Positions 2,082 through 63,121 of a stretch of 64,000 bases of DNA are shown piece by piece. The DNA comes from Euglena gracilis (taxonomy: Eukaryota): positions 48,773,847 through 48,837,846 of the forward strand of contig CP154954.1 of NCBI GenBank assembly GCA_039621445.1, read 5' to 3'. The notes under the pieces are model-generated. The model was not told the origin of the DNA. It was given only the letters and a program-made list of their open reading frames with translations, and ran no database searches. The position numbers and the translations under genes were made by a program. Position 1 is the stretch's first letter; each line of letters opens with the position of its first letter.

Positions 2082-2132
<51 letters not shown>

Positions 2133-4943: not shown

Positions 4944-4996
<53 letters not shown>

Positions 4997-8406: not shown

Positions 8407-8450
<44 letters not shown>

Positions 8451-8891: not shown

Positions 8892-11800
8892 ATGCCACTC
8901 TTCTCCAGCAAGCCGCACCGCTTTGAGGAGACAGAGGAGGTGAGCTGGGACTTCTTTCTGCAGAATGTGGGCACCGGTGTGTGTATGTGTGTGCGTGCGT
9001 GCGTGTGTGGGTGCGTGGGTGTGTGCATGCGTGCGTGGGTGCGTGGGTTTGTGTGTGCATGCGTGCGTGCGTGCGTGCTTGTGTGTGTGTGTGCCTTTAT
9101 TTTTGCTATTTGTGGCAACTTTTTGGGCACTTTTGGCCATCCTTTGGCCATTTTAGGCCGCTTTGGGCTATTTTTGACTGTTTTTAGCCAACTTTTAGCA
9201 ATTTTGGCCGAACCAACATTGTATACAAAAAGATCGTCTCTGACCGGGGGGGGGGGTGGTCGTTAGACAAGCCCGGTCGTTGGACAAGGGGGGGGAGGTA
9301 CATTTTCAAAATCCGGGCCTTCGGCCCGAAACCGGGGGGGGGGGTATTATTTCGGCGGCCGAAGTCGGACCCCGAGGGGGGGGGGTATTATTTGGGGGGG
9401 GGGTTAGAGACACACTGAAAGGGTGGTGCACGTTCTCGAATTCCGAATGGATCCATTGGTGATTTTATTTTTTTTGGAAAAATGATTCGCGCGCGCACAC
9501 ACAAAAATGGTCAAAAGTAACCAAAAACAGCCTAAAGTGGCCAAAAATGGGCAAAGGGGGCCAAAGTGTGGCCAACAGTTGCCAAAAGTGGCCAAAAGCG
9601 ACCAAACATGGCAGGGGGGGGGAAATGCGTTTCGCATTTTTTCGCATTTTTGCGCATTTTTTGCGCATTTTTTCAAATTTTCCAAAAATGCGCATTTTTG
9701 CGCATTTTTTCGCATTTTTTTGCGCATTTTTTTTTCATTTTTTTCAGCGCATTTTTTTGCTTTTTGGCATATTTTTTCGTGATTTTCTAAAATTTTCGCA
9801 TTTTTTGACCATTTTTGCAATTTTTTCCAAAAATTTGAAATTTTCGACTTTTTTTTTGAAACTTACATTTTCCTCATTATTCTACATAATTTCTTCAAAT
9901 TTGGTGCCATTTTTGCATGTTTTTGGGTAATTTTTGCATTTTCGTGATTTTTGCGCATTTTTTCTCGGATTTTGCACATTTTTGCGCATTTTTTCCAAAA
10001 ATGCGCATTTTTTGTGCATTTTTTTGCGCATTTTTGCGCATTTTTGCACATTTTTGCGCAATTTTTCCGAGGCCGGGCGAGCGCATTTCCCCCCCCGACA
10101 TGGCGAAAAGCGGTCAAAAATGCCTAAAAATTCCCAAAAGTGCCCCAAAAATGTCCAAAAATGGCCAAAAGTGGCCAACCGTAGTCAAGAAATACTATAA
10201 ATGGCCAAAAACAGCCCAAAAATGGCCATATACCCCCATCTATGGTAAATTTTCCTCCGACTTGGGGTCCACCCCGCTTGTCTAACGACCGCCCCCCCCC
10301 CCCCTGGTCGGAGACGAACATTGGCCATTTTAGCGACCGCCCCCCAGTCAGAGACGAACATTAGTGGTCGCTGGACAAGGGGGGGGGGAGGTAGGTAAAA
10401 ATGAACCTGAAAATGTAGGTAAAAATCACAGTTTCTGACAACAAATTACGAAAAAAATCGATTTTTCTGGATCATCTGACCTCCAAAAAAATGGTAAATT
10501 GCAACAGAAAGTCCAAAAAATGACCCTAAAGGGGGGTTTTGGCGCTACTTTGGCTTCTACGCGACTTCGAAAAATTTCAAAAAAAATTCGAAAAATAATA
10601 CCCCTCCCCCAAATAATACACCCCCCCTCGGGCCGGGACTTTGGGCGAAAAAATGATACCCCGGGGGGTTATTATTTGGGGGGGTTATTTCAGCCATTGG
10701 CTCGAATGGACACAGAAATCGTCAGATCACACGACCACAAGACGCGACAGAGTCGGCGGCCGCCGACGGCCCGAGGGGAGCAGAGGGCCGCATCAGGGCC
10801 AGCCACACACGCGCGCACACACACATTGATTGCCGCTGCAGGAGACGTCCTCATGCACCACGGCACCGGCAAGAACTCCACCATGATGCAGAAGGGCATG
10901 CAGTGCTATTACAGCCACACCGCCATGTTTGTGCGCAACCCGCGGCCCGGTGTCCCCGTCTTCTCCCTCCCTACCCCTTGATATTAATGATCTGCTTCAT
11001 TTCTTGTGCAAACAGTGAGATTCACCCCCTTTTTGTGATTTCGGCTAGGTGTTGCCGACTTGTTTTTTTGTGACCTCAGGAGATGCCCAAATCCCTCCTT
11101 TTTTATTATTATCATTTTTCCCCCTGGATGGTGGCTTTTTTTTTCAGCGATTGACAGAGCAACGTTTTGCTGCCCGACTGTCATGAAAAACATGTAAAAA
11201 AAACACGAAAAGGGGATGATTAGCAGTTCCTTCGACCATTTTTTCCCTTGGTGCTAGCAGCCTCGGAGCGTGCCCAAAACCTCGTGAAAAACAGGCCGCC
11301 CATTTTTTTTTTCAAACCGGCGAACACCCGTGAAAGAGATTTCTGCAAAAGCCTCCTTTTTGCTTTCTCCTGCATGGATTCTTGGAGCAGGAGTTGTGGA
11401 CCAGTGAAAAACCCATGGCGATCCACGTTGAGAGCAGGTCATCACGTGACCGAGTGGTGAGGGCACCAGTTTCAGGGCTCACAACCGACCAGTGGGGAAG
11501 GGCTCTGGGACACAGTGATGGAAGACGTGCAGAAGGATCTTTTGCAGGGATTTCAGAGGAAGATGATGACCCGCTCATGAAGAGCAAGGGGTGTATTGCC
11601 ACTGAATGGGATGTTGAAAAGTGCAAACTCTTTCGCAATCGCGCAAAGGAGTTGGCGTGTCGAGTTTTCACCCCCAAAGAATGTGTATTTGATGCTGAGT
11701 AACAGCATGTTACACAACTATCCTTTTTTTCAGCCTCTCAGGGATAATGGAAAATGAGGAATTGTGTTTAAAACTCAATTGCGCCATGACAAGTGAGTGA

Positions 11801-14800
11801 AATTTAATCTTGTTCGCACAATTTCGCAAGCGAGTTTTCAGCTTTTGTTTGCGCAACTGCACAAGTGATACAGTTAATTTATCCTCACTGGGACCTTTCC
11901 CTGACGTGTTTTTTTTGCCTCTCAGAAATGGATGCATTGGGTGTGCCATGTTCTCCTGAAATCTGTTTCGCACCCCGTTCTATATTTTCCCATCAGCCGT
12001 TGGAGAGGAATGTGATTTGCTGTTATGCAGCCTGACGAAAAAGAGAGTTTTCACAACCCCTTCTTTGGACACCTCATTTCCATGCCTTGAAATACTGCCT
12101 AAAAGATCACACTCATTGGGGTATGATCGATATGGGTTTCGATTATACCTCAACTACATCACTCCAATGGTTGAATATTTAAGCTTTTTTGGGTTGGTTT
12201 AAAATGCCTCTGTTCAACGCCTTGTCCAGGGCGAGTTTTGGGTGTTCACAAAGCTCTTCATTCAATTGGTTTTCTGGACTGGGTCGTATGCTCCTGATTT
12301 GCACCACAAACTGGATAGGCGACGAAAGGGCAGCGCCAGACTCCCCTGAACCCGCTGGAAGAAGCAATCACTGGGTGGACAGCCTTTGAAGCTTGAACTT
12401 GTCGATCAGCTCCCAGGTGGCAGAATGTGTACCACAAAGTCCACAGATTGACAGGTTGTATTTTTGGCACTGTCCGTTGCTGTTTTTGCGATTTGGACTG
12501 GAATCTTCAAATTCGATAGTTTGTGAACTGTCAAGTTTTGAGACACGTGTTTTCATCTAAAAAAACGCGCCCCAAAAACGATCCCAAATAGGCAATAAAT
12601 TTTGGAAATGTTTTAGATTGCGCGATTGCGCAAGGCAAGTCCACTTTTATGTGCTAACTGCGAAAAAGGGTCTGCATGAAAGTGGTTTGGACAAATTAGA
12701 GGAGCGAAACACTGCAAATAAAACAAAGTTTTGGGCCTGCTAACTTCTCCATTATTTGTGAAAAAATTTTCTCCGACATTCACACTGTTGTTGCCAATTT
12801 GGAGGTTACTTCCAGTTTCCAAGCTGAGGTTTAATGCTAGATTTTTGTGTTGTAATTCTTAATTTGATCTAAATCCCAATTTGAAATCACAAATCCTCAA
12901 TCTGTCCCACAAATCACCGATTTAGGAGCTCTTGGAAACTTCCAGAGTTTTGTCAGGAGCTTTTTGCCTAAATGCTCCAAATATTTTTCTACCATTTCTC
13001 CGAGAGCGCCATTTTTACGAACCATTTATCAATCACCTTTTCCGGCATTTTTTTTTAATTCACAATTTTTTTTACCCAGTTTGCGCCCCCACCTTTTTGT
13101 CACGAAGCCCCCAAACGTTTGTTCTGTACCCCACAATCACCTCCCAAAAATGGATCCAGCCGAGACCCCCGCCCCCGGGGACCCTCCCTCTGTGGGGGGG
13201 GGTCCGCAGTCGGCTGGTGCGACGACCCGTCCCCCCCCCCCGGGTCCGAAAACACCTGCGGCTGTCCGCTGCAGACGTGCTGGCGCTGTTCAACGTGGCG
13301 GAGCCCTGCCGCACCGCCATCTACGTCTGGGAGTCGACCGCCCAGGAGCCGGAGGGGACCCGCCTCATCCCGTGGCTGAAGTGGCTGGACCACGAGCGGC
13401 AGCGCAACGGGGAGGGGTACCTCCTCGTGTGGCGCAAGCTGGGCGGCCTGGACCCGGCCCGGGAGGGTGTGTTGGCGCGTTGCGTGGTGTTTCTTTCCGG
13501 TGCATTGCCTTGTGTTGTGTGGTTGCCTTGCGTGGCCAGTCTGGCGATACGTTTGCACTGTACGTGCTGTCTTTGAACAGTCACCATCCCCTGGTCCAGG
13601 GACGTATACATGTGTAGACGCATGCATGGATGGATGTGCATATCATGCACTTATGTGGATGTGTGCAAAGCTATGAATATATGTGTATATAAATGGTGTG
13701 CTGTAGACATGGATGTTTGCTGAGCCCACTAGTCCACTAGTCAGCTAAAGCCATAACCAAGCCAGGAAGGATGTGACTGTGCGAGACCCCATCTTCTTGG
13801 GGGAAATAACTGAATAAAATCATGGAGTTGGGGATGCCACAGACCACCCACTCCACTGAGGGGAAAAAGAGCTTTTATTGTAAGCCCCCTGTTCTTTTTG
13901 ACCATTTTTCGGACCCCCTCCAGGGCTTTTTCAGCCGAAATTTGCAGCAAAAATCCAAAATAAATGGATCACCTCCAAAAATCTGGCCCCCTTGGGATTT
14001 TCAGCCCTGACCCAAAAAGTCGACCAAGGGTCGTACTTGGGGGGGGGGGGGACCTTGTCAATGGTTTGCGCTGCTGCTGGAGGGGGTGGGACGGATCGTT
14101 GTTACTCCGCAATCAGCCCAAGGATTTCTGGTTTTGTCTCAAAAAATGAATTTCATATGAAAGATGGGATAGAATCAAAATTTCAAAGAAAATCACACAG
14201 TTTTTGGGCTATTTTTTTGTATTTTGTTGAAAATTATCCGGATATGTCTTATTTGCGGGGGATATGTTCTATAAGTATCCATATCCTCCCCTCACAGCCA
14301 AGCTCTGGGATTGTATCCGGCAGTCTAGGCACGTCCCGTATGAGAAGCACCGCAGCGAGATGTTCAAGGCGCTGATCAACCTGAACAAGACAGACAAGGT
14401 GGAGTCTATGTTCTGCTCGGAGCTGGTGCACAGCCCGGGCCTTGAGCCGTCTACAAAAAGAGGCCAGAACTTCCTGCCTGGAAGTGTGGGTCCTCCCTCT
14501 CATTTCCATTGTTTGTTGACCCCATACCTGTCTTGAATATGGAAGTCGTGTGGTTGTGTGTGCACCTGAGTTGTTCCCGCTCCCTGCTCCCTGGCACATC
14601 CAAACGTACTCAAGGCATCTCCCCTCCCTCGAGGGCATGCAATCTGGACCATGCCAAACCCTGATGCCATATACATACACACACACACATATGTATATGT
14701 GTGTGTGTGTGTGTGTGTGTGCGTGCGTGCGTGTGTGTGTGTGTGTGCGGGCAAACCACGAGGTGGATTGGATTCTGCCAGGGAGCTGTGCTCAACCGTT

Positions 14801-15167
14801 TCCGTGGCAACTGGCACAGGGGGGGGGCTTCTGCCTGGGGACCGAGACCAGGCTGGCAAGGGCCTTCGCGATGAAGACGGCGGGGCTGGTGTCGGACCGC
14901 ATCGTCGTGTCCAACATGACCACCGCCTCCTTCTCCCACTTCTACCACCACGACTCCAGCAACATCGAGGACGGCCTCCTGAACTGCACCCTGGCTCCGG
15001 AGAAGCGGGTGACGCTGCCCCTGTGTGCCCCACCCCCACCCCACAGGGGTGCTGGCCGGTCCCTTGCCCCACAATGGCACATTCGCATGGACGTGGGGCT
15101 CATCCGCCTGAGTCAGGTGGCCACCTCCCGTGCCATCCGCAGGGTTGCAAAGCCGTTCACAATCTAG
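8892..15167 (+). CDS. Permuted papain-like NlpC/P60 amidase (YiiX/YaeF-type), multi-exon (copy 1)
   Basis: Exons 8892-8976 (MPLFSSK...NVGT), 10842-~10942 (GDVLMHHG...[12 protein letters not shown]), ~13266-13466 (IYVWEST...LVWRKL), 14298-14427 (VPYE...MFCSELV), 14861-15167 ([10 protein letters not shown]...). His (YSH) precedes Cys (FCSELV), as in the permuted family. The 3' end is less certain. Confidence 0.8.
9614..10097. mobile_element. MITE with 8-bp TSD, internally built of GCGCATTTTT repeats, private to copy 1
   Basis: [18 protein letters not shown] / CGCATTTCCCCCCCC; flanks ACATGGCA / ACATGGCG. Empty site AAACATGGCAAAAAG at ~37795. Confidence 0.75.
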
Positions 15168-17516
15168 GCGCTGGCAGTCGTGGCGTCGGCTTCTCCGCAG
15201 CGGTCGCTGTGCGGGTGCATTCCTCCTCACCCTCACACCCTTGCCACTACCGGGGGTATGTACCTTAGCCCCCGTTGCTGATGAAGTGGAACTCTACGGC
15301 CGCCTCTTTTCCTACCCTGTACTGTGATCAGGGTATTAAGTGAGCATTGGTTTTGTATGGGGGGGAGGGGAGGGGGGTTCAGATCCCCCCTTCAGACGGA
15401 AGGGGGGGATGGGACCCCCGGGAACTCAAAATCAAACTCTGGCGCATTGTGCTGGGACAAAAAAAAGTTTTTGTATTCCAATTGTGTGCGTGTTTCCAAT
15501 TTTCAAAAAAATGTGTGCGAATGCGCAATTTTTGGGCCTTTTTCCAAATCCAAAAAATTCTGTGGCTCTTTGTGCCAGATTTTTTTTGCACAGGAGGACC
15601 CCCCCTTCGGGAGGTCCATAACTTCGGGAGGTCCATAATACCCCCTTCCTCCCTGTTCATTTAATACCCCGACTGTACCTCATGCCCCTATCCCTGATCC
15701 ACTTGCAGCCCTACATTGTCTGCGGCAGACCCCTGGCTGTATTGAAGCTCTGGGTTTGTCGTCAGGAGGGGGAAGGCTTGGTGTTGGACCAAAAGCTTTT
15801 AAGTCGCCCAAACAAGGAATGGGTTCGCAGGCTGTTTGACAGACCTCCAGTCCAACGTCTGCGTTGTGCAACGAGTGCCCGTCCCCGAGGGCTGCCCCAT
15901 TCCGTTCTGGGCCACCACCCTTCCTCGTCCCGCCTTTCCCTCCTACGGTCCTCGCGGCTGCCCTCAACGTGCCGTCCAGGCATCCATGCGCACGTCTCCC
16001 TTTTTCTCGTATTCTCACCTCACCCAGACCTTTCCTGAGGAAACGGCTTCAGCAGCTGACCTTTCTCTTGCGAAATTTGAGAATTTTTGTTTAAAAATGT
16101 GTATTGACATTTTTTTTCCAGGCTTCTGACCATAAAAGTGTTGGAGAAAATCACCTTTTTGGATCTTCGTGTCGCCAGAGGTCGAAAAATGTCGATTTTT
16201 TTTTTCCTCAAAGAGACCTGTCTCCTCCCTGTTCTCTCTTCCCTGTTCTCGCTGACTTGTCTGGAGATGCCTGATCTCCCTCAACCACGACGTCCTTCCA
16301 AGCTCGCTTTTGAAGGCAAGGCATTAATTTTAGGGTGCGGAGAATGGATTTTTGTGTGTGGATTGGATCCACTTTGAGCCAAAAACAGCACATGGTGGGG
16401 CAAAGTTGAAGGTTGTTTTTTTTTTAAATCAAAGAGGCCTGCTTCCTCCCGCTGAGCAATTCGCTCCCCTGTGTGTCGTGTCCCGGTTTTGCGCCACAGG
16501 GGTCCCACCGACCCCCTCTGTCCTCATCTCCGCCGGTGCGCGGTGTGTCTGTGGGTCGGTAAATGAGAGCTACTCTCGGAGGACAAAGGTGGTGCTGGTG
16601 ATGGGCCCGTGGCACATCACCGTTGATGGCGTTGCTGCCTGTGCCGGCCTGCCGCCGTGCCTGTCGGGGCCTGTACTCCTGCAGGTGGCAAAAATCCGCT
16701 AAAGTCACAGCCTCGGATCTCTTCTACTGCGGTGCGGCACACGTCGGAACATCCCGTGAGCTCACCCACAAAGAACCCTCTGAAGACGTTCAGTATTATT
16801 GCAGGACATCCTTCCTCCAAACTTCTCTCACAAAGGGCAGGTCGCAGGCTGGCAGGTTTTTTTGGCTGCGAAGAGACGCACATTGAACAAATCCCTTGCT
16901 TTTGTGTGAACTCAGCCCTGACCTTTCACCAATGCGCCCCCCCCCTTCCGAGGGGGGCTGAGTGGGTGTGTCCTCTAGCCAAGCCCCCCCCCCCCGGTTT
17001 GGGCCAAGTGGGTACCCCGCCAGAGGCGGGGGTTTCCCCCGTTTCGGTGCGAAGTGCCGATCAATTTTTGGTCCCCAAAAACCAATTGTGGTCCCCCTGA
17101 GCCCCCCCCCCCCCCAGGCCCCACCGCAGGGGTTTGGACCCCCCCGGGTCCTAAAAAACCTCTCCTGGATAAATATGCTGACCCATACCAAAAATCTACA
17201 GACAAAAATCCAACGCTGACTGTTCAGGCTCACACAGTGGAATGGAAGTGGATGGTCCGCTTCTGAGCCGCAGGGGGTGGGGTTGTACACCCTCATCGAT
17301 TTTTAATATCATCAATTTTTTATCGCTGCTGAAAGTCTGGGGTAATTAGTGCCTCTTGTCCATGGGGGCGACCCCTCCCCCCGACGACATCGATCCCCCG
17401 TACCCATCCCTCATTTTCAACAACACATCCAATTTCCACCAACTCACCAGCACATGACGACCTATCCTCAGGTTTGGGGGGGGGGGCGGGGCACTGACCA
17501 ATGCCAGCCAAAAGGA

Positions 17517-17744
17517 TAACCCCCCAAATAACTTGGCGGGCCCTTGCTCCTGGCGGGGGCCGGATAACCTGGCAGGGGGAGGGGCAAAAAGGATGGTCCC
17601 AGAAACGTGGCACCCCATTTTCAGCAAAATTCTTTTATAGCGCTGAAAAAAAAACAGGCCCAAATAGCCTGGCGGGGGGGGGGGGGCAGGGCCAAACGTT
17701 GGTTCAGTGACCTGGCACCCCGCCAGGTTATTGGGGGGGGTTTA
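17517..17744. mobile_element. TA-flanked MITE just upstream of JBP1 (also at 45854-46072)
   Basis: TAACCCCCCAAATAACTTGGCGGG ... CCCGCCAGGTTATTGGGGGGGGTTTA inverted ends; same terminal type as 7392-7621. Confidence 0.6.
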
Positions 17745-17787
17745 CTTCCCCGCAGGGCCACCACCGTGTCCCTCAGGCTGCCCCCCG

Positions 17788-20700
17788 ATGGCCCGCGGAA
17801 AAGGCTCTTCAGCCGCCGCCAGGGCCAAGGAGGCCCCGCCTGCCAAGCGGCCCAAGACAGAACCCCCGCAGGTGTCGCGTGTGTTGCTGGGGCGGGGGTG
17901 GCGCAGTGGAAGCGAGGTCTTTTGAGCGGCTGCCTCGTGGGGTGTCCAATGTTGCCGGTGTGGTCTGGTCTGTGGAGACCAAGCCACAGCATCCATCTCC
18001 CTGGCACCTTATCCCCTTTCCGCAACAGCCGGGATGGCAGTGTCAAATGCAAATGCAGTTGAAATGATCCCACCACGGCTCCTTGGGTCACTGACCCCCA
18101 AAGGTTAAACCGCGCTTCTAATCATTCCACCCAGGGGGAGCGACAACCTAACACCGAGCCCAAGGTGGAGCCAAGTGATGAAACAATCCAGTCCGGTGTG
18201 CCTCCTCTCACCCAACAGGTTGTGTTGACCAAAATTGAACCTCCCTCCTGGGGGGGTAACAGTAGGAGGAGGTTCGAGCTCGAACGTTCGAGCTCGAACC
18301 TCCTCGAACGTTTTTGAGCCCCCCCCCCTCTTCGAGGGGGGGGCTTAAAATCCTCCTCGAACGACCTCGAACGACATTCGAGGAGGATTTTGATCCTCCT
18401 CGAATGACCTCGAACGACATTCGAGGAGGATTTTGATCCTCCTCGAACGACCTCGAACGACATTCGAGGAGGATTTTGATCCTCCTCGAACGACCTCGAA
18501 CGACATTCGAGGAGGATTTTGATCCTCCTCGAACGACCTCGAACGACATTCGAGGAGGATTTTGATCCTCCTCGAACGACCTCGAACGACGTTCGAGGAG
18601 GATTTCGATCCTCCTCGAACGACCTCGAACGACATTCGAGGAGGATTTTGATCCTCCTCGAACGACGTTCGAGGAGGATCTCGATCCTCCTCCTACGTAC
18701 ATACATTCAAGTTTCAGTTGCAAGTTTTTTTGGGCTTTGTTAGCATGGTTCATTGTTCTTGATTCTGCTTGTTTGTTTTTTTCTTACGCAGGAATGCACT
18801 TGTTCATAAATATTTTTATTCAGAAATATTCTTATACCGAGAGAATTTCTGAGGTTATTAGAAGGAATAGGGTTAGGGTTAAGACTTCATCCCCAATGGT
18901 TGTAACCATCCCGCTCATCGTTGCTATATTTCCCTCTACAGGGTACACAGCGAACCCAAAAAGTCGCCCAACTAGGGTTAAAAACATGGGGGGACCCGAG
19001 CGAGGCGCCGAAGGCACCGAGCGAGGGTCCCCCCATGTGTATTAACCCTAGTTGGGCGACTCTTTGGGGTGGCTGGTACCTGTAGGGGGAAATTTTCCAC
19101 GCGTCTTAAAAGAAACATATTTTTTCTTACGCAGGAATACACTCATTTATTCAAAAATATTCCCTGAACGGCATTCGAGGAGGATATTGAACTCCTCCTC
19201 AAACGACCTCGAACGACATTCGAGGAGGATTTTGATCCTCCCCGAACGACCTCGAACGACGTTCGAGGAGGATTTCGATCCTCCTCGAACGACCTCGAAC
19301 GACGTTCGAGGAGGATCTCGAACCACCTCGAACGACGTTCGAGGAGGATCGAGATCCTCCTACTACTGTCCATCCCACTACCGTAACCCTCGCCCTCCCT
19401 CCTATTTCAGAACGTGGTCTGAAAATTTTAATTATTGCTCACATGCATTTGTGGACAAGAAACAGGCATGCTGTGCCCTGTACAAATACCATGTGTGTGC
19501 TCACACACGTGCATTTCGATGCCTGCACAAAGAGAAAGCAGCATTGGTGCCGACGCATTGATGCCGACGGCCAATCTTATTTATGTCCGACGGAATGTCC
19601 CAGAACTTACGGCCCAACTGCGCACATGATTTGGATGGAGAGCACCTAATTGACTGTGCTTCAGCACAGTCAACGTGCACACCAGCATGATTCGCAGGGA
19701 GGGTGTGGAAATTGTGAGTAGACAAAACCCACTGATGCAAAAGGATCATTAAAGACGAAGTGTAGGGCCAAACACCCAAATGGGAACGAAATGAACATTT
19801 TTTTTTTGGCTGGAAGTTTCTTGCGAGCTTGACACAGCGTCTGAGGGAATTCCCCCCCCAAAAAACTTTCGGCTTCTCCCCAGCCCCGGAACCACCCACC
19901 CACCCACCCCACCTCTGGGGTCTTCTGATTTAAAAAGAAGGGGGGGCCACCATGAGCATCGAGCACAGCAGGAAGGGGGCTAGACATCGCCATATAGAAC
20001 ACATGAATTTGCGGCGGGGCAACCTCAGAAAACGCACTGCGGGGCTGCCAGAGGTCGTTCCAGTTCACATGTGGCATACAGTAGAGCTCCACACTTAAAT
20101 GTGGGGTACTGTGGGGGATATGTGTGGGGGTGTGATATGTGGGGGGTGTTGGGGGGATGTTGGGGGGTGTCCAGAAACATTAAAGTTGGATGCCCCTAGT
20201 TGCACTGATAAAGGATCTTTGTTATTTTCGTTCTGGGGGTCCCCCCTGGACAAGGCCGAAGGCCGAGTAAGTCAAAAAATGATGCCAAAAATTTCATGTG
20301 TGGGGTACTGTGGGGGTGTGGGGGGTGTGGGGGGGGGTAGTGTGGTTGTTTCTGGGGTACCTGCTTTGGGTCAGTGTAAGTTTGGCAGGCAGAGGGGACC
20401 CTACACCATGCCAAGCATCCAGTGCAAAGCTGGTCGCAAGCGAAGGACACCTGCCCCCCCCCCCCCGGCACCAGTGCCGGCGGCCAAGCCCAAGCCCGTG
20501 GCCGCCGTCTTCCAGCCCAAAACCCCCGTGAAGCAGGAGGTCAAGGCCGCCCGCAGGTCCCCTTCCTGACAAACAAACACAAAACAAACACGCACGCATG
20601 CACACACAACAACATGCACACACTCAACACACACTCAGCACACAACTAGAGGCACCGTCACACTGCTGCTCATCAGATATCCTCATCAGATAGGGGTGAA

Positions 20701-22744
20701 ACACGGTCTGGAGGTGATGGACACAGCCTGACCCAAGCACTGCCAGTTTGTGTAGATTTGCCAGCAGAGACGTACCCCCCCCCCAACGGGCCGTCCATCA
20801 ACCATGGCTATGGCCATCCCCGGAGCGTTTCCATGGCACCGCGCCTCCCCACCAGCAGAGGGCAGGTCCCAGGAGGTCCAATCTCACTGCACAAGGTCAA
20901 CCATACTTCTTTGTAGTAAGTAAAAAGATTGCAGAGTTTCTGTGAAAAATACCCCAAAAAATTTGCGAAATCCTTTTTTCTGCCTCTTTTGCCTTTTTGC
21001 TGTTTGCTGCACCGCGGGGTGAATTCGTCGAAGCTTCCCGCTGGATGTCATGCGGAAGTTTCAATGTGTGCAAGAGGCTTCCTGTGCCCCCCCCCCCCCA
21101 CCCCGTGGCGACCCCCACCGCAGCACGGCGCCGCCCGTCGTGGTGCCGCCTCGCCCCGCCGCTGCCGCCTCCGCCTTCGTGCCGGTGAAGGAGCGGCCGG
21201 CCCCCGCCGGGTCGGGCGGCAACGGGTGCGCCCGGCAGTGGACAACGGAGGCGTGCCTTTCTCTGTGCCACTGTTGCTATCCGGATTGCTACGAAGCAGG
21301 TTACAAGAGGTCCCTGCCCTCCCCCCCCTCTTTTTGGGGAAAGCCCGTGTTCATTGTCTCAAAGGCTATCATTTTCTTTCCGTTGTTACTCGCCATGTGT
21401 CATATGTGATATTTTGGACCGCTTTTTGCACACATTTTCATTTTGCTTCAATTTGGAATCAGTAGATAAAATATTACGCTAAATATCATCTCAAACCCAA
21501 AATTTTGTTCTTTTTTTGTGCTGTATTTTATTCACCCCTCGGCCACATTCGGCTGCCATGTAAAGGAGGTGGGGTTCAATTGAGGGGTGAATTAAAGAAT
21601 GAAATTTTTTTTGGCTTGAGGTAGTTATGGGCCCTAAAGTTAGACCCAAAAGTGGGCCCCTGAGCCCCCCCCCCCCTCCCCAGGGTGGGTGGTTGGGAGG
21701 TTGGGTGTGGATGAGGCGCACTACGACCCTGCAAGAGAACTTTGGGAAGGGGTGTGCAGCTTTTCTGTTTGTTTTTTTTGTCCCCAGGAGGCGGTCGCTG
21801 CCCACCCTTTCATCGACAAGGCCCACTATCGGGCCATCGTCACGACGGACTTCCTCTTCTCGGACGACGACGGGCGGGTGGTGTGCGTCGTGCTGAAGGG
21901 CGCCTACCCGGACTGGGTGCGGGAGTGCGCTGCTGCATAGGGCCGATTGCCTCACGGCCCCTGAGATGGGCCCATTCCACTTCATTTACTGTAACACCCC
22001 CCATCTGGGTCAATCCCATGTTAAAAGCTCTTTTGTATGAATTCCTCTCTTATCAGTACCTGCTTCTTGTCCTTGTCGATGCTCACCTTCTTCTTCAGCA
22101 GGAAAAGGGGTTGTGTTCTGAAGTGTTAATGGCCCCCAGTGCCAGTTCCCTGGGCTTTGTTCTGAGTGACTTGTCACAGGGCCCCCATTTGGAACAAAAT
22201 AAAAAGGCACCAATGGCGCGAGTTGCCAATGCTCAAATCCGGAGCGCCGGCCGGCTCTGCCCCCGACGTCCTGCGGGGCGCTGCCCGGCCGACCTCCCTA
22301 CGGGCAGGCATCTTCGGGGGCGTGGCCCCCATGTCCGGTGTGAACCGTGCCCGTCACACGTTCCCTCTTCCCGTCATTTGCCATGGGAAGCAGCAGCAGT
22401 CTGCTTCTGGCCTCCATGAGTCCATTCCGTGCCTGCCAAGTGGGCTTGGCATTTGTTGGCCGCTCTGCCCTGTGCCCTGGTTGCATGCAACCTCCCAGGA
22501 ATCGCTGGCTACTACGATTACATGGGGGCCCCGGTGGAGCTGAAGGGGCGGAAGACGAGCTTCACCCATGACCACCTCGAGGTCTTTTACTGGTTCAGAG
22601 TGAACTGGTGCCAACCAATTTTTCTTTGGTTGCCTGAAAGTTTTTTTTTCTGCCTCACAAATTTTTCTGTTTGCCAGCTGTTCTCTGCGTACGTGCACAT
22701 GCGTGCGTGTGGCTCTCTCACCCTCCCTCCCTCTCTTTCTCTCT

Positions 22745-22793
<49 letters not shown>

Positions 22794-25700
22794 CTGGCTG
22801 GCTGTCGGGCTGCGTTGTCTGTTTGTGTATGTTGAGTGGGCGGAGGCGGCATCATTGCACCACCGGCGTCTGGCACAGGAGTGGCCGGGGGTCTTCCCCG
22901 TGGTGGACTTCGCCAACGAGGCGTACCGGCAGGTGGCGCCGGACTACTGGCGGGCACAGGACCGCGGCATTCCGGACCACGTCCGCCTCCACGGCTCCGC
23001 CTTCTCCACCCTGACCATCAACCAGGTGTGCAGTGGACAGCGGGTAGCCGGGGAAGTGCAACACGACGTCCCCCCGAACAGGTGGGTGTGCAACACGCAG
23101 GGCATGGCGATGAATGATTTCCGGTCCCTGTTCTGCCGGGACAAATGCCTGCAGCAAGGATGCAGGTCTACAGAGACCAGAACTCATTTCTTAATGCTAG
23201 ACAATTTCGCTCGCTGTGTGTGTGTGTGTGTGTGTTTGGGTTCCAGACTTCATTGTGGAAATGTGAAGGAATTTTTAGGCTGGAATGGTGCAGGGGAAGG
23301 AATTGCCTGTCCAGCACACACCAGCCGTGGGTTGAGGGCTTCGGCGACCCCGACGGAGCTTTGGTCAGGTGTGATCGCTGCCACTGCCGGCCTCGCCGCA
23401 GAGGTTTCGGACGGCCACGCACACCGACCGGGGGGACTACGACCACGGCCTGAGCGTCCTGACTGTCCTGGAGGTGTGGGCGACCCCATTTACCCCCCAA
23501 CCCAGTTGGGCCATGTGGTGTGCGTTGTGACCGAGTGCATGGCCAAGGTCAAGGCCAATGGATGAACGCCGCAAAAGGGAGCTGCGTGGCCCTTGCAGCA
23601 CCTGCTTCAGCAACCAACTGTGATAAAAAGTACCCAGCCCCCCAGCCCAGGCCCACCAATGCCAAAGGGGAGGACCCCCCCCCCTGCTGAATCACCTGTG
23701 GAGGGAGGTAGTGGGGGTAGTGCCTGCAAGAACCCCCCCCCCCAGGGCAGAACGGGAATCGGCCGAACAGCCAGGGTGGTGGATGGGGGGGTCGACCACC
23801 CCCTGCATGGTGGGTGGGGGGGGGGTCGACCCCACCTCTTCCCGTATTTCCGGGAGCACCAATTTTTGGACCTGAAAAAAAATTCCGGCGCCTTCGGCGC
23901 CGGGTGTTTTTTTGACCCATTTTGGGACCCATTTTGGGGTCCAAAAAACCCCCCAAACCCCATTTTTTCACACCTTCCAAAAATTCAACATTTTTCTCCA
24001 AATGTTGATTTTGAGAAGTTTTTGAAGCAAAAAAATGCTATTGAAACTCCAAATAATTTCAACGAGAAAAAATGTCAGTAAAATTTGATTGTGCCAAAAT
24101 TTTGTCCACATTTTTTAACCTTCGTTTTTTTCACCCCCCTCCTAAAAAATACCAATTTTTAACCCTAAAATTTTTGAGGTTTTTTTTGTGGAAAAATGTG
24201 GTTTTTCGTCAAAGAATCATGTGTTTTGGGTTCATTCTTCAAAAAAAAATCAATTTTTTTTCCGGCCAATATCCCCGTTTTCCTGAAATCGGTGAAAATG
24301 CTGTGGTGGGTGGGGGGGGGGTCGCCCCCCCCCCCCCCACCAGGCCTTCCCGTTCTGCCCTGACCCCTCCCCCCACTGCGTCCTCGAACCCCCTGTTCGG
24401 GCCGCGATTTTTGTCACCTGAGCGTTCGTTGGACACGGGATGGGGGTTGGGTAAAGCCAGCCTGATAACCAGCCCAATGCCCTCCGGCCGGTGCGCTGAC
24501 TTCCTTTTTGTTGTGCACCCAAACAACAACAACAACAACAACAACGACAACAGCAGCAGCAGCAGCATCAACAATAAACCAATAAACCACGCCGCCAGCC
24601 AGGGACCCAGGGGCACCAGAACTATCCAGGGAGATCTTTCCTTGCCGACGCCTGCAGGGGCAGTACGAAGGGTTGTTCATCGGGTTCCCTGACAAGGCTT
24701 TTTCTTCAAAGTGAACGTCCTCCTGGGGGCGAGGGGAGGTCCACCAAAAGGGGATGTGTTTTGGGGTACGTTGTGCCCAGTACATCCCCAGGGGCCAATT
24801 TCGAGGGAAATTCATCTGTGTTGTGTTGCGTTGTGTTGCGTTGCGTTGTGTTGCGTTGTGTTTTGTCTTGTGTTTTGTGTTGTGTTGTGTTGTGTTTTGT
24901 GTTGTGTTGCGTTGCGTTGCGTTGCGTTGTGTTTTGTGTTGCGTTGCGTTTTGTGTTGTGTTTGTGTTGTGTTTTGTGTTGTGTTGTGTTGTGTTGTGTT
25001 GTGTTGTGTTGTGTTGTGTTGTGTTGTGTTGTGTTGTGTTGTGTTGTGTTGTGTTGTGTTGTGTTGTGTTGTGTTGTGTTGTGTTGTTTTGGATCAGCAT
25101 GACCGATCCCCAATCCCCACGGCTGTGCTCTGGGCGGCTCCCAATGAAACAGGTCCCCCCCTCTCCTGTGGGGGAGGCGGTTGGTAATAAAGGAGCCTGT
25201 CCCTGATTTCCGTGTCTGCGTGGATTTGCGGCCCGGGGACCTGATGGTGTTCGACTCGCACTACTTCCACTGCAACACCGAGGTGTGCCACCAGCGACGC
25301 CGTCAGGTTGGTCAGTTGTTTTCAGCCACAGGAGGGACCCCTGCCCCCGGAGGTCCACCCAGCCAGCAGCTGTTTTCCTGCCCCCCCTCCCCCCCACCAC
25401 AAATTTTGATTCTTGCCCAAAGGAAGAGTGATTGGTGAAGGTGCAAAAGCAAAATTTGAGATGTGCAGCCCCATTTTTTTATGCATTTTTCCCCCTGCCC
25501 ATTCTTGGCCCAGTTTTGGGGCCAACACATCGAACTGTTTTGCATAATTGCCACTTTTGTTTTGCACCTAACTCCACCTCTGCTCGAGGAAAGTACCAAC
25601 CAGGAACTTGCCTCGTTCCAACCAGGGAGGAAGGGGGGCAATCTTTTTTCCACCCAGCCCAAATTTCCCAGCCATTGAGCTGGGTCCCCCCCTCCAAGCA

Positions 25701-26591
25701 GTTGTTTGGCAACCTCTTTTTTTTGCCTCCTTACTTGTCTGGCTGTGTCACTTTCTTGTGCCCAGCAGTCTGTTTTTTTTAACGGACAGTATGCCCAGTT
25801 TTTTTTTAATTCTTGAAATACGCCGCACCGGCCAGACTTTTTTTTCGGTCAGCAGACCCATCCCCCCTCAGGGGGACGGGGGGTGGGTCCAGGCCGAACC
25901 CCCCCGGGGGGGGGGTCTTGGTCTGGGTCCGGCCTGGACCCAGGCCAAGGATCAGGCTACGCACTTCCATATTGCCTTACAAACCTCCCGACCCCATTTC
26001 TCTGGTGACCCAGAGGTTGTTTTTCGTATGCAGTCAGCGTTGTGTGATTGAAGTATTTATTGTCTTTCGTCCCCTCCGAATTGATGGCTGCCTCCCTCTG
26101 CCCTCGAACATTCTGCTTTGGGACACGTACAGGTGGAGTCCAGTGCCAGCGACTGGTCACGCCTGTCATGTGTGTTCTACTACCGCTTCAAACTCGGGGA
26201 GACGCTGTGCCTGTCAGAGTGCCAGAGGCGCAAGGTGTGTCCCCCCTGCCCTCCTCTCACCACGCTTGGCTCAGCTACGGTCAGAGACTTTTAAAACTGG
26301 AGCCCCCCCCCCAGCATGGGGTTGGGGGTCCCCCTGTATGGACAAGAATCCCTGGCCACAGTAGCTGTGCCTTTAGGATCCCCTCCTCCCCCCCATGCTC
26401 TTTGTCAGGCGGAGAATGACCACAACCCGGCGCAGCCGTTCGCCCCGCCGGCGGACTTCCAGCCCAGCACCAACGAGCCCCGCGTCCCACGCCCGCCGCG
26501 CCTCAGCGTGACGTCCCTCCTCGTCGGGCCCAGACCTGGGCCAGCGAGACCCGTTCAAGTCGGACGACCCCAGCTACTACGTCCTGTATGA
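17788..26591 (+). CDS. JBP1: J-binding protein 1, truncated copy: complete thymidine hydroxylase (2OG-Fe(II) TET/JBP) domain, no J-DNA-binding domain
   Basis: Exons 17788-17865, ~20459-20550, ~21090-21250, 21788-21934, 22265-22337, 22499-22581, 22879-23025, 23402-23473, 24658-24690, 25205-25282, 26133-26234, 26409-26591. Spliced protein has [68 protein letters not shown] (HxD), [12 protein letters not shown] and [12 protein letters not shown], colinear with kinetoplastid JBP1. Ends 20 codons after the duplication junction. Confidence 0.88.
18250..19393. mobile_element. 1.14-kb insertion with 10-bp TSD (Mutator-like?), private to copy 1, inside JBP1 intron 1
   Basis: Flanked by CCTCCCTCCT (18240-18249 and 19394-19403); single copy at the empty site ~46572. 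Weak TIR GGGT(A/T)AC(A/G)GTAG. Contains 43-bp repeat arrays. Confidence 0.75.
18351..18690. repeat. 43-bp palindromic tandem repeat (~8 units; more at ~19165-19360)
   Basis: Unit CCTCCTCGAACGACCTCGAACGACATTCGAGGAGGATTTTGAT with self-complementary arms CCTCCTCGAA / TTCGAGGAGG; no spacers. Confidence 0.9.
23743..24362. mobile_element. CAG...CTG MITE inside a GT-AG JBP1 intron, shared by both copies (56963-57593)
   Basis: Perfect 16-bp TIR CAGGGCAGAACGGGAA / TTCCCGTTCTGCCCTG; flanks A-poly(C) / ACCCCTCC. Confidence 0.75.
24691..25204 (+). other. Non-conventional JBP1 intron with 8-bp TSD remnant
   Basis: TCCCT|GAC-AAGGCTTTT ... GGAGCCTG-TCCCT|GAT. Direct repeats TCCCTGAC (24686-24693) and TCCCTGAT (25200-25207); splicing gives [15 protein letters not shown]. 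Confidence 0.8.
24817..25087. repeat. (GTGTT)n pentanucleotide microsatellite
   Basis: Seen directly; much shorter in copy 2 (~58071-58156). Confidence 0.95.
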
Positions 26592-29500
26592 CAAGGTGGA
26601 GTTCACCTTCAACGATCTGGGGGTGTGGGGCAGAGCGCTGCCTTTTTACCTGCAGCAGTTCAAGTGCGATCCCTCACAAGGTTTTGGTCGGTCCGTGAGT
26701 CCTCTGGAAGTTCCATTTTGGGGTCTTTGTTTTGAATTCTTCTTCAGCAATCGGACACGAAAAAAGAACACAACATTTTGGGAAATGCGGAAATTGCAGG
26801 GTTTGCACAAAACTTGCAGAAAAATTGATGTTGGGAGTGTGCAAATATCTGTTGGAGGGGACTGACAAAGAAATTCATCCCATTTCACCCCATATGGGAT
26901 TCATTTTCATTTTGAAACAGTGGTGTATACTTTGAACTGTCATTCACACTTTTTTCACAAACCAGAAACATAATTTTGTAATTTTGGAGTAAAAGGCCAA
27001 AAAATTGCTTCCTGGAAAAGGCGAAAATGACAAAAATTTGATAAAGCCTTTGGTAGCATTCTGGATTCAAATATTTCTAAGTCGAAGGATAATAAATCGA
27101 GATCATTTGAGCAGAACTCGAAGAAACCTAAAAAGTCATAAAACTCACAAATGCAAACCAGCAGAGAAAAATAATTTGTGCTTCCTTGTGAACCATTCAA
27201 AGGACGGCTGGAACTCACCACCTCTTCATTTTGCAGATGCCACCAAAGAATGCAGACCAAGGGAGGAAAGGAATAAAAACTGCAGAAAAATTGCAAAAAA
27301 AATGGCAGGAATTGTGGAAATTGCCAGGAAATTGCAGACATCAATTATCCTCCCTACCGTGGGGTGTAGGGCGATCTCCTCTGATGATGAAGTCTGATGC
27401 CCAAAGATATCCCAAAATGGGTTTTTAACCGGGGGAAAAAATGAACTTGCCGTCCCAGCACATTCATTTGAAGAAGGGGTGGGGAATTCAAATTTTCTTT
27501 AAAACAGGTCGGCAATGGGAAACAATTGCTTCCCAGCATCCTTGGAACGTGGCCCATCTGCCAAAATGGACAAATGCGGGTTTCGAGCGTTCAATTCTTG
27601 ATACCATTTGAGCCCCAAACCGCCCGCCCCTTGGAAGTCTGAATCGGCCTTTGAGTGGAAATTTCGTTTGAAAAACATCCCATCTTTTATGGCCTTTGAT
27701 AAAGCACAGGAGGAAAACACATAACACGTGAAACCACGTGCTATGTGTGCCTTGGAATGGAAACCTTGAATCATCTTTTCCTACCCCCCCTAATTGTAGA
27801 GTGTGGGTGCTCTTGTAGTGGACGCTCGCTTCGCCAGAGGGGGGTGCTCTACTATTTAGACCCTGCTCTTGTTGTGGACATCACACACAGCGTGACGCAC
27901 GCACTCAAGGAGCCAAATCTTACGTTATCTGGAAAAACAGTGTGTGTGTGTGTGCCTGTGTGTGTGTGTGTGTGTGTGTGTGCATGTGTGTGTGTGTGTG
28001 TGTGTGCAGGGTGAGGCACCTCCGAAAACATGCCGCCACAGTAAAATTAAAAGTTAATATTATGCATAAAAAGCAACAAAAACAAAATTAACAAAAGCCT
28101 CTCCAAAATCAGGAGGTGAAGCGCTGGACGCTGAAAAAAATCTTTCAAATCTTCCAAAAACCATAATTTCAGACAGAAAAAAGATGATCCCCAATTATTT
28201 GGGGATTATTGAGACCAGTAAATATAAACGCCGAGTTTCGCAGGTCAAATATGAAGCAAAAGTGCCAAAAGATTTTTTTGGGGTCGTTGGAAATTCAAAA
28301 TTTCCCCGGCACTTTTTCCCATGGCCTTCAATATCGATTCTCCCCCCCCCGGTGTCCCAGCGAGCGTCCGGGCCCCGCCCTGCGCGGGATCGACACCACT
28401 GCGGTGGATTTCTTCTGCATGCCGGTCGCCCTCCACTTCGAGGGCCGGCCCGGCACCGCCGTCGGCCTCGCCCAGCCCCGCGCCGCCGTGCTGCGCACCG
28501 TGGCGGACGCCTTCGCCGGCCCCTGGGGCCGCCTCCTCCTCACGCACCCCGCCCGTCCCGGTGAGGGAGCAGCCGCCATACACGCGTGCTCGTGCGGTGC
28601 GAGACTTGCCGACACGTTCCCCGCTTCCCTTGGGGCCCGCCGCGTGGGACGCTGGCAACCCGGACGGCAAAGAAGCGGTCCTCCGCGTCCTGGCGCCCAA
28701 CAAGGCCATTGCGCAGGGGCACTCCCAGGCCGACGGTTCTTCTCTCCACTCGGAAACCGAAGCCTGCGCCCGAGATTTTTGTGCATCCTCTTTCAGCAGA
28801 GTCAGTGTCGCCGGTGCAGAATATGCTGTACCCAATTTGGACACAGTTTTGCTTGATGGGTGGTGGATGTGGACTATTGTCGCATCCACTGGTTTCCGGC
28901 GGGGGTACGTGCGAATGGCACATCTGGGAACCAATTTTCCCCGGTGCACTTACCCCATGGCCGATTCCCTCTGGCCTTGGCCGTCGGGACCCAGCCGAGA
29001 ACTTCCCCGCAGACTACCTGCAGACCGCCATCCAGGCTGTCTGGACCCACTACCGAGCCTCCGGGGCCAGCCCGGCCACGGCCCGGTTCACACTGGGAAA
29101 ACCTGCAAATGCCTATGGATGGCTGGGACCCCGCCAAGGTGCATATCTGTTTTGCCTCAGCTGTGGAGCCGTCGAGCCAAGGCAGCACAATGTCATGCAT
29201 CGGTCCCAGTTTGCCTCAGCTTGGCAAGCAGTTCTTACACAAGACCAGGCAATTTTCTGACTGCTAGTTTTTTTATTTATTTTTTCAAAATCAAAATACA
29301 GGGGCGTGGTGTGTGAGGTGCACGGAGAACTCCGGGTTCTGGGAGGTGCCTATGTGGGTACAGTCCACGTTTGCCGCAACTCCGCGCTCTTCCACACCCG
29401 TGGCGTTGGGTGGGGCACCTTGTCGGGGGGCGGGGCCGGGCAGTGCGTTGGAGCCCCGCGGACCACGTGCTGCGGGTGGACTGCGGCGAGCTGATCGGCT

Positions 29501-46115: not shown

Positions 46116-48930
46116 ATGGCCCGCGGAAAAGGCTCTTCAGCCGCCGCCAGGGCCAAGGAGGCCCCGCCTGCCAAGCGGCCCAAGACAGAACCCCCACAGG
46201 TGTCACCCGCGTGTGTTGCTGGGGCGGGGGTGGCGCAGTGGAAGCGAGGTCTTTTGAGCGGCTGCCTCGTGGGGTGTCCAATGTTGCCGGTGTGGTCTGG
46301 TCTGTGGAGACCAAGCCACAGCATCCATCTCCCTGGCACCTTATCCCCTTTCCGCAACAGCCGGGATGGCAGTGTCAAATGCAAATGCAGTTGAAATGAT
46401 CCCACCACGGCTCCTTGGGTCACTGACCCCCAAAGGTTAAACCGCGCTTCTAATCATTCCACCCAGGGGGAGCGACAACCTAACACCGAGCCCAAGGTGG
46501 AGCCAAGTGATGAAACAATCCAGTCCGGTGTGCCTCCTCTCACCCAACAGGTTGTGTTGACCAAAATTGAACCTCCCTCCTATTTCAGAACGGGGTCTGA
46601 AAATTTTAATTATTGCTCACATGCACTTGTGGACAAGAAACAGGCATGCTGTGCCCTGTACAAATACCATGTGTGTGCTCACACACGTGCATTTCGATCA
46701 GGGGTTTTTTTTAGTCGTGGACCCCTGGGGGGGGGAGGGGGGTAGGGTGGGTGGGTCCGGCCGAGCCCCCCCCCCCCGGAGGGGGGTGGGATATACTTTT
46801 CGGCGCCGCAGGCGCCGAAAAAATGCTATTTTTAGCACTTTTCGCGATTTTCCGGCCATTTTTTGTGGGTCCCCCGGGACCCCCCCCCCCGGGGGGGCCC
46901 CCCAGGGGGTGGGTGGATGGGGGGGACCCCCCCTCCCCCCCCCCGGTCTTAAAAAAACCCCTGATTTCGATGCCTGCACAAAGAGAAGGCAGCATTGATG
47001 CCGACGCATTGATGCCGACGCATTGATGCCGACGACCAATCTTATATTTGGGTGTTTGGCCCTACGCTTCGTCTTTAATGATCCTTTGCATAAGTAGGTT
47101 TTGTCTGCTCACAATTTCCACACCCTCCCTGCGAATCATGCTGGTGTGTACGTTGACTGTGCTGAAGCACAGTCAATTAGGTGCTCTCCATCCAAATCAT
47201 GTGCGCAGTTGGGCCGTAAGTTCTGGGACATTCTGTCGGACATAAATAGGGAACGAAATGAACATTTTTTTTTGGCTGGAAGTTTCTTGCGAGCTTGACA
47301 CGGCGTCTGAGGGCATTCCCCCGGGGACCCCCAGAACGAAAATAACAAAGATCCTTTATCAGTGCAACTAGGGGCATCCAACCCTAATGTTTCTGGGCAC
47401 CCCCACCCCCCAACATCCCCCCAACACCCCCCACATATCACACCCCCACACATATCCCCCACAGTACCCCACATTTAAGTGTGGAGCTCCACTGTATGCC
47501 ACATGTGAACTGGAACGACCTCTGGCAGCCCCGCAGTGCGTTTTCTGAGGTTGCCCCGCCGCAAATTCATGTGTTCTATATGGCGATGTCTAGCCCCCTT
47601 CCTGCTGTGCTCGATGCTCATGGTGGCCCCCCTTCTTTTTAAATCAGAAGACCCCAGAGGTGGGGTGGGTGGGTGGTTCCGGGGCTGGGGAGAAGCCGAA
47701 AGTTTTTTTGGGGCCCCCTGGACATGGCCGAAGGCCGAGTAAGTCAAAAAATGATGCCAAAAATTTCATGTGTGGGGGGTACTGTGGGGGCAGGGATGGA
47801 TGGGAAGCCCTTCGGTATTGAGGTAGGTGGTAGGGGGGGGTCGCTGAGCTCTTATCCCTTTATGGGTAAGAGCGAAGCTTACCACCGGCGAAACCCCCCC
47901 CCCCGCCCCCCCCCCCCCCCCCCCCCCCCCCGGGTCGGGGCCACCAGGACCGACGGATTATCACCATGACCCCGGCCCGGTTCCCGAATTTTTTTTTTTC
48001 AGTCGCGAGCGACTGGATTTCTAGTTTCCGAATCACCTGGGTTTGACCCCCAACTCCCCGCCAGGCCCGAGTTATTCACGCGCGAAGGGGTCCAAACTCG
48101 GTAGGATTTACCCCCCCCCCCCCCCTGGATAAGCCCCCCCCTTTGGACTCTGCCATTTCGGCCAAAAAATGTCAATTTTCAAAATATCTCCAAAATGAAG
48201 CCAAATCAAAGGAAATGTCCGGAGACCTAATTTGAAGCCCTTGGAACGCCCCATCTACCGGTATTTTGATTTCCCCGCAACTCCCCGCCTAGCCCGAGAT
48301 ACGGCCGTTTTCGGCGCAGATGGCCGTTTTGTACACTTTTCCCTCTGTTCGACTTAGCCGTTTTCGGGGGGTGGGGGGTCAAAAAATCGATGTTTTCAAA
48401 ATTTCTCGAAAATGATGCAAAATCAAAGGAAATGTCCGGAGACCTAAATTGAAGCCCTTGGAACGCTCTATCTAGTGGGATTTTGGTTTCCCCGCAACTC
48501 CCCGCCCAGCCCGAGATACGGGCGTTTTTTGGCCAATTTAGGCCATTTTAGGCCATTTTGTACACTTTTTCCACTGTCCGACTTAAAAAAAAGTCGAAAA
48601 AAATCGAAAAATTTTTTTTTGCCCGAAACGATGTTTTTGGGCCTCCCGGACCCGGAAAAACTGTTTTTGAGCCGAAAACGAGCGTTTTTCGACCCGCCGG
48701 CGCCCCGTTTTGGGCCGCCGACCCATTGACTTTGGGTCAAAACCGGGTCAAAAAGTCGAAAAAAAAAAAAAAATTTTTTTTTGCCCAAAACGCGATGTTT
48801 TTTGGCCTCCCGGACCCGGAAAACTGTTTTTGAGCCGAAAAAGAACGTTTTTCGACCGGCAAACGCCCCGTTTTGGGCCGCCGACCCATTGACTTTGTTT
48901 CAAAAAAACGGCAACAAAGTCGAAAAAATC

Positions 48931-48961
<31 letters not shown>

Positions 48962-55926: not shown

Positions 55927-55969
<43 letters not shown>

Positions 55970-63042: not shown

Positions 63043-63121
<79 letters not shown>

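Follow-up and report, generated by a model that had tools for sequence, protein, structure and literature searches.

A JBP1 exon joined to a GH64 intron tail at the boundary of a tandem repeat in assembled Euglena gracilis DNA

The present analysis concerns a junction between two different genes, JBP1 and a beta-1,3-glucanase gene of the GH64 family, in a 64,000-nucleotide (nt) stretch of Euglena gracilis DNA (GenBank assembly GCA_039621445.1, contig CP154954.1, positions 48,773,847 to 48,837,846 of the forward strand), here called the window and numbered from its first letter. The window is intron-rich, contains 42-68% G+C per kb and no N, and is most likely euglenid nuclear DNA. Base J is reportedly present in Euglena gracilis, to our knowledge the one organism beyond the kinetoplastids that is well known for it. 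Self-BLAST of the window revealed a head-to-tail repeat with a block of about 26-31 kb, in which 248-26528 is collinear with 28112-59346 at 92-96% identity. Window bases 45-520 also align to 27982-28397, which indicates that repeat copy 1 starts upstream of the window. Within the window, repeat copy 1 (1..26528, plus strand, as are all features below) holds the 3' exons of GH64, about 14 kb without a recognised domain, and JBP1 exons 1-13, the last of them partial. Between GH64 and JBP1 (3.7-17.8 kb, both strands), no Pfam family was matched at E <= 0.001 among 117 open reading frames (ORFs) of at least 75 amino acids (aa). Searches of the literature on a long-read Euglena genome and on euglenid JBP genes found no account of this locus among the papers listed.

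JBP1 is represented twice. A 966-aa protein, P0001 (source name EG_transcript_1694), was found from a 381-aa window ORF with a Tet_JBP match, and its residues 1-572 map to 19 short exons at 46116-63550 in copy 2, including exons beyond the breakpoint described below. The agreement is exact except for one V/A difference, common to both copies, and the final residue of the last mapped exon core. Copy 2 (46116..64000) is of the full-length type, with exons for aa 1-572 in the window and a gene that runs past the window end; its exon 13 continues through 59347-59397, and the intron at 59398-59486 has non-conventional GG..CC borders. JBP1 copy 1 (17788..26528) comprises codons 1-403 in 13 exons, as established by tblastn and exact translation against P0001 and by Tet_JBP Pfam matches, and its exons equal P0001 aa 1-403 exactly, bar A78. 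The exon cores lie at 17788-17871, 18135-18194, 20474-20554, 21119-21250, 21788-21934, 22265-22333 and 22498-22581 (exons 1-7) and at 22879-23025, 23399-23473, 24658-24693, 25202-25285, 26136-26234 and 26409-26528 (exons 8-13). Introns 11 and 12 are GT..AG, and the splices 25280>26131 and 26232>26407 were seen in RNA.

The domain content of the two copies differs at the 3' side. In P0001, Tet_JBP occupies aa 193-347 and DB_JBP1 occupies aa 511-653. Copy 1 ORFs match Tet_JBP (PF12851) with E values of 2.8e-10 and 0.0057, and all four Fe(II)/2-oxoglutarate (2OG) residues, H275, D277, H325 and R339, are present in its exons 9, 11 and 12 and are invariant in 26 aligned homologues. Ending at aa 403, copy 1 has no DB_JBP1 (PF18526); in the window, the start of this domain occurs solely downstream of copy 2 (63422-63628, E 5.2e-07). 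These results agree with a sequence-only reading of the window, which had held that the HxD motif, the distal His and the 2OG-binding Arg are kept and that the J-DNA-binding domain is missing. The truncation at aa 403 removes aa 404-966, including the whole C-terminal region (aa 654-966); the region completing the hydroxylase fold is absent from copy 1, past whose aa 403 there are only 20 unrelated codons. The end of copy 1 (aa 403 of 966) aligns at about residue 350 of Trypanosoma grayi JBP1.

Two side observations concern JBP1 proteins more generally. The C-terminal region of the euglenid-type proteins gave weak, sub-threshold methyltransferase Pfam matches (P0001 aa 840-888 and P0007 aa 911-962; Methyltransf_2 E 0.0068, Methyltransf_23 E 1e-05, Methyltransf_12 E 9.4e-05), which may hint at the fold of this poorly characterised part. 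Three predicted proteins, P0023 (462 aa), P0024 (739 aa) and P0030 (535 aa), which are possibly fragments, share 45-49% identity with the N-terminal part of JBP1 and contain Tet_JBP without DB_JBP1. The match of P0023 to P0001 stops at residue 403.

The junction lies at 26528/26529, where the codon of Gly403 (26526-26528) in JBP1 exon 13 is joined to the tail of a GH64 intron. The two repeat copies do not differ at a single base over 26409-26528, and from 26529 onward they are unrelated; no N separates the two sides, and both sides belong to one locus in one orientation. The left side is an exact match to P0001 aa 364-403. From there the JBP1 frame continues through PRPGPARPVQVGRPQLLRPV, 20 novel codons that with the TGA at 26589-26591 occupy 26529..26591. 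The switch from JBP1 to GH64 at a duplication junction and the 20 novel codons up to the TGA had both been noted in the sequence-only reading, and self-alignment, the matches of the flanks to P0001 and GH64, and translation bear them out in the assembled sequence. The same reading had described an exon-to-exon junction into an out-of-frame GH64 exon. A GH64 exon is indeed located downstream, in a frame that is +1 relative to JBP1, but the first 19 nt after the breakpoint (26529..26547, read as 'PDLGQR') do not belong to it. RNA joins an upstream GH64 exon to 26548, and a 1137-nt contig of DNA run X7 (record 7) is continuous from 27023 back to 26527 before passing into sequence unlike the window; 26529-26547 is therefore the 3' tail of a GH64 intron, readable as codons 404-410 of the shortened ORF, and the exon begins at 26548. 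The junction is of the exon-to-intron-tail type. Its microhomology amounts to 2 nt (GG, 26527-26528), all that the parental GH64 locus shares with the JBP1 side, and the parental GH64 breakpoint is placed about 1.3 kb upstream of the window start. Exonic sequence accounts for about 10% of the JBP1 gene (1725/17435 nt), so a breakpoint inside an exon is unremarkable.

On the right side of the junction, the GH64 exon DPFKSDDPSYYVLYDKVEFTFNDLGVW (26548..26628) was assigned by tblastn with P0005 (aa 128-158), by the PF16483 profile (positions 102-134, E 0.042) and by the splice 26626>28387. P0005 and P0006 are GH64 proteins returned by a database search with one GH64 ORF, and P0005 scores 163.8 bits on PF16483. 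With these as tblastn queries, copy 2 gave 8 collinear segments and copy 1 gave 7 (best E 6e-11, 64% identity), the first copy 2 segment being 26536-26628 against P0005 aa 128-158. The RNA sequence that precedes 26548 translates in the GH64 frame to ...TLAEP, which fits P0005 (...TIGEP followed by DPF...) better than the ...LGQR of the window. Matches of single ORFs to PF16483 reached 13.5, 10.7 and 16.7 bits (cut-off 27) and are collinear at profile positions 102-134, 135-177 and 320-346. The intron that follows the junction exon (26627..28386) has non-conventional GG..CG borders, and its joint 26626>28387 is carried by 11 reads of X21, 7 reads of X24 and a contig of X16. The joint 28549>28656 is likewise confirmed in RNA, around an intron (28550-28655) with non-conventional CG..GG borders. 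The remaining GH64 copy 2 exons, with approximate limits, were placed at 28387-28549, 28656-28710, 28994-29071, 29691-29807, 30680-30811, 31084-31113 and 31579-31629 by tblastn with P0005 and P0006, RNA joints and weak PF16483 matches.

Two databases were searched with the junction exon region 26530-26694. A protein database search returned three candidates, none of them at E <= 1, and a sequence search of the PDB returned 14 sequences at E <= 10, the best at 0.57 and none of them GH64. The exon 26548-26628 is expressed, yet it matches nothing in a word-indexed search of 5.8 billion proteins, which suggests that the GH64 gene is absent from the transcript-derived protein sets of that database. 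Within the GH64 intron, an element at 27762-27882 has a word depth of 51,252 in DNA run X7 against about 30 nearby and represents a very high-copy genome repeat. A serine in a conserved GH64 exon is encoded by TCC in copy 1 (2870-2871) and by AGC in copy 2 (30764-30765), a two-base switch that keeps the residue.

Evidence from sequencing runs was collected by mapping the contigs of DNA run X7, the spliced contigs X16 and the raw RNA runs X21 and X24 on 25100-28700. Statements on bridging refer to the records listed, and chimeric raw reads are bounded from the letters they carry rather than counted. A check for RNA reads across the junction found that, among the records listed in the three RNA data sets (X16, X21 and X24), none bridges 26528/26529. 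RNA that reaches 26528 from the left continues exactly as the copy 2 exon (10 reads of X21, 7 reads of X24 and a 2020-nt contig of X16), while RNA that matches from 26548 on has an upstream GH64 exon before it (10 reads of X21, a 1313-nt contig of X16). The C of the window at 26561 occurs in 2 of 12 X21 reads and 2 of 5 X24 reads, which sets the maximum of possibly chimeric reads; C is found here in the intact GH64 contig of X16 as well, and the C-bearing reads therefore need not be chimeric. The X24 depth of 7 at 26489 and 26491 is matched by 7 loose ends of the full-length type. In these records the truncated JBP1 is not detectably expressed as a chimeric mRNA. Copy-2-type GH64 letters do occur in RNA, in 2/7, 2/7 and 2/9 reads of X21 and in 3/4, 3/4 and 3/3 reads of X24 at 28535, 28537 and 28687, respectively.

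The DNA contigs gave a comparable picture. None of the X7 contigs listed over 25100-28700 bridges 26528/26529, with the limits that contigs drop minor variants and that X7 possibly comes from another strain. The left contig crosses 26528 into 223 nt of other sequence and the right contig crosses 26527 into 640 nt of other sequence. Metagenome contigs scanned with a 28-mer across the junction gave no match, and a matching copy 2 28-mer used as a control likewise gave none, so the scan says nothing about the junction.

RNA run X21 also contains more JBP1 diversity than two copies provide. At least three combinations of exon 12 letters are present, at roughly 36%, 41% and 18% as computed from counts, which implies more than two JBP1 sequences in the species or in that strain. 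X21 variants in JBP1 exon 13 and GH64 (26456, 26489, 26491, 28409 and 28420) are found in neither window copy, which suggests that more than two alleles or copies are expressed.

The divergence of the repeat copies was evaluated along the whole alignment and within the two genes. Copy 1 and copy 2 differ by 776 mismatches over 21,770 aligned nt (3.56%), and this divergence is even along the 21.8 kb, at 1.4-5% per kb. Over 1218 shared coding nt the JBP1 copies show 15 differences, 14 at synonymous third positions and one non-synonymous (A/V, codon 78). The Nei-Gojobori values are 0.046 for synonymous (pS) and 0.0011 for non-synonymous (pN) differences, a pN/pS of 0.024. Neutral drift of copy 1 since the split predicts about 21 non-synonymous changes (P about 1e-8, for one neutral lineage). 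Intron divergence is 4.8% (210/4391) across 11 of 12 JBP1 introns; intron 2, whose lengths differ by 5 kb, was left out. The GH64 copies show 4 synonymous and 4 non-synonymous steps over 603 nt (pN/pS 0.35; P 0.018-0.32), which is too few changes for a contrast. The length difference of JBP1 intron 2, 7.3 kb in copy 2 and 2.3 kb in copy 1, comes from differing satellite content: about 5 kb of satellites in copy 2 (48446-51540 and 52630-53700; an array of an approximately 162-nt unit and an array of 8-nt period) is missing from copy 1, which holds an array of a 43-nt unit instead (18308-19409).

The constraint on copy 1 exons can be explained without assigning a function to the truncated copy. 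The copy-1-type letters of exon 12, A26168, T26171 and G26225, are the only type in X24 (4/4 reads), in which all exon 13 ends are full-length, and the X16 contig that runs full-length also bears them. A full-length gene with copy-1-type exons thus seems to exist, and the tie between these letters and full-length transcripts would account for the constraint. The sequences probably diverged while they were still intact alleles or copies, and the junction formed later. The published estimate of heterozygosity in E. gracilis is 2.2-2.6%, and an even divergence of 3.56% near this value weakens the argument from constraint to a functional gene.

Published biochemistry bears on what the product of copy 1 could do. 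According to Adamopoulos et al. (bioRxiv 10.1101/502252) and De Vries et al., the C-terminal region and the N-terminal hydroxylase part of JBP1 build a single fold, and the former state that the two halves remain together after cleavage. They also report that N- or C-terminal truncations, made before or after the J-binding domain, yielded no soluble protein, and that delta-JDBD alone, a form with the C-terminal region retained, is soluble, being active and 15-fold slower than JBP1 (bioRxiv 10.1101/502252). Copy 1 lacks the J-binding domain and the whole C-terminal part, so the proposal that it encodes an untargeted oxidase of thymine to hydroxymethyluracil (T-to-hmU) rests on the least favourable kind of truncation. 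A complex prediction for P0001 116-403 with 654-966 (score 0.13, mark 0.34) gave no verdict and was not used as evidence.

Taken together, we tentatively prefer a tandem duplication, young or confined to a haplotype, that has its breakpoint at the junction and left gene fragments behind. A block of 26-31 kb would have been duplicated in a real, evolutionarily young and possibly haplotype- or strain-specific event, with joining that was non-homologous or guided by the 2-nt microhomology, probably between diverged homologues. The 3'-truncated JBP1 and the 5'-truncated GH64 would then be leftovers, and an intact GH64 upstream and an intact JBP1 downstream would do the work. The anatomy, the splice sites, the source of each junction side and the transcripts of the intact genes are observed; the age and mechanism of the junction and the lack of function of the fragments are what we infer here. 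The kind of event is already known. If translated, the truncated JBP1 would most likely give an incomplete and poorly folding part of a thymidine hydroxylase, not a free-running T-to-hmU oxidase. Several points weigh against this explanation. A minor chimeric transcript may exist, although none appears among the records listed, and the copy-2-type GH64 letters in RNA suggest that transcription may cover the 5'-truncated GH64 region, possibly driven by the promoter of JBP1 copy 1. A functional truncated gene would also agree with the strong constraint seen in the exons of copy 1, and bioRxiv 10.1101/502252 cites a report by others of activity in a JBP1 1-451 construct. Finally, the picture given by the X7 contigs is the one expected where the junction is absent or rare in X7, and it fits an assembly artefact equally well. 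Such an artefact, a false heterotype duplication in which two haplotypes of one locus were assembled in series by a wrong join, would mean that no truncated JBP1 or GH64 exists; we consider it a close rival, only somewhat less likely than the duplication. The even divergence close to the estimated heterozygosity speaks for it, as do the appearance of both partial genes as constrained alleles, the occurrence of copy-1-type exon 12 letters with full-length transcripts, and the passage of X7 contigs from both sides into parental sequences with no bridge among those listed. Adjacent false duplications that make false chimeric genes, sometimes closed by unsupported gap filling, are documented by Ko et al. 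(2022). The join itself, however, has no N gap and is non-homologous with 2 nt shared, which is not normal for overlap-based joining, and the hallmarks named by Ko et al. (2022) are gaps or read-depth gaps between copies. The three or more exon 12 combinations in X21 also mean that one strain at least has more than two JBP1 sequences, and contigs from X7, possibly another strain, cannot show absence.

The remaining explanations accept the junction as real and differ from the preferred duplication breakpoint in function or in history. In an extension of the sequence-only reading, copy 1 would be an expressed and selected hydroxylase-only JBP1 (403 + 20 aa) that has no J targeting and carries GH64 exons as its 3' untranslated region (UTR). 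An ORF intact across 13 exons with all four Fe/2OG residues is consistent with this, as is the very low pN/pS next to a synonymous divergence equal to that of the introns. Constraint appears weaker in GH64 copy 2, which is what translation of the JBP1 part alone would predict, and the copy-2-type GH64 letters in RNA, the activity reported for the 1-451 construct and the predicted JBP1-like proteins without DB_JBP1 (P0023, P0024 and P0030) can be counted on the same side. Several observations in the RNA speak against it. The transcripts of the flanks are full-length JBP1 and intact GH64 and not one with the glucanase remainder as a 3' UTR, no record listed bridges the junction, no more than 2 of 12 (X21) and 2 of 5 (X24) reads at 26561 could be chimeric, each of the 7 X24 reads that reach the end of exon 13 is full-length in type, and the connection of copy-1-type letters with full-length transcripts, itself an inference, would explain the constraint. 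The fold, moreover, needs the C-terminal region that copy 1 has lost, C-terminal truncations were insoluble in published work, and even delta-JDBD, which retains that region, is slowed. A stop codon far 5' of at least 7 introns would also be an unfavourable mRNA design. The untargeted oxidase and its glucanase 3' UTR thus find no support in these data, and we regard it as very unlikely that the functional reading is correct, and just as unlikely that Euglena keeps an N-terminal dioxygenase paralogue of JBP1 that is expressed weakly or conditionally, under purifying selection, with a spliced fossil glucanase 3' UTR. Equally improbable in our judgement is a two-step origin, in which complete tandem copies of GH64 and JBP1 diverged under selection before a deletion made the junction by removing the 3' half of JBP1 copy 1, the spacer and the 5' part of GH64 copy 2. 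This history leads to the same final structure, gives a reason for the constraint in the two partial genes, which would date from before the deletion, and accounts for full-length transcripts with copy-1-type letters in other strains. It invokes a second event, however, although a single one would be enough, a strain carrying both copies complete was not seen, and on the window alone this history is not separable from a one-step model.

A real junction with an expressed copy would make the locus a natural experiment on a JBP1 hydroxylase without J targeting, but the evidence favours a gene fragment or an assembly duplication. Should an N-terminal-only JBP1 indeed be maintained, it could be a thymine hydroxylase that is untargeted, or targeted differently, or else modulate full-length JBP1. 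For annotation the locus calls for caution, since a spurious 'short JBP1' and a spurious partial GH64 model would result from it and gene counts would be inflated. The analysis also provides RNA-verified exon borders for euglenid JBP1 and GH64, non-conventional introns included.

Comparison with known systems places both halves of the junction. GH64 copy 2 shares eight collinear exon matches with GH64 beta-1,3-glucanases (PF16483), including ...YAFAFDDAVG..., but lacks everything before about residue 135 of P0005, and its single exons score below the Pfam cut-off. With the false heterotype duplications described by Ko et al. (2022), the locus shares adjacent copies at about the divergence of heterozygosity and an apparent chimeric or partial gene, whereas the window copies have no gap between them. 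Among laboratory truncations of JBP1, copy 1 resembles the C-terminally shortened N-terminal constructs, which were insoluble in the hands of Adamopoulos et al. According to the literature, JBP2 is a natural JBP-family hydroxylase without J binding that seeds J de novo and requires its SWI2/SNF2 domain for function. This is the role that the sequence-only reading imagined for copy 1; JBP2, however, is targeted by its SWI2/SNF2 domain, and copy 1 is without any second domain. In kinetoplastid JBP1 the same order of Tet_JBP followed by DB_JBP1 is found as in copy 2 and P0001, which has 43% identity to Trypanosoma grayi JBP1 over aa 119-685, while the euglenid gene is set apart by its numerous introns, among them non-conventional ones. 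Copy 1, which closes with 20 unrelated residues, has neither DB_JBP1 nor the C-terminal part of the fold (404-966), but it keeps the N-terminal part with H-x-D...H...R, matching the residues H189, D191, H239 and R255 shown to be essential in L. tarentolae JBP1 by Yu et al. (2007).

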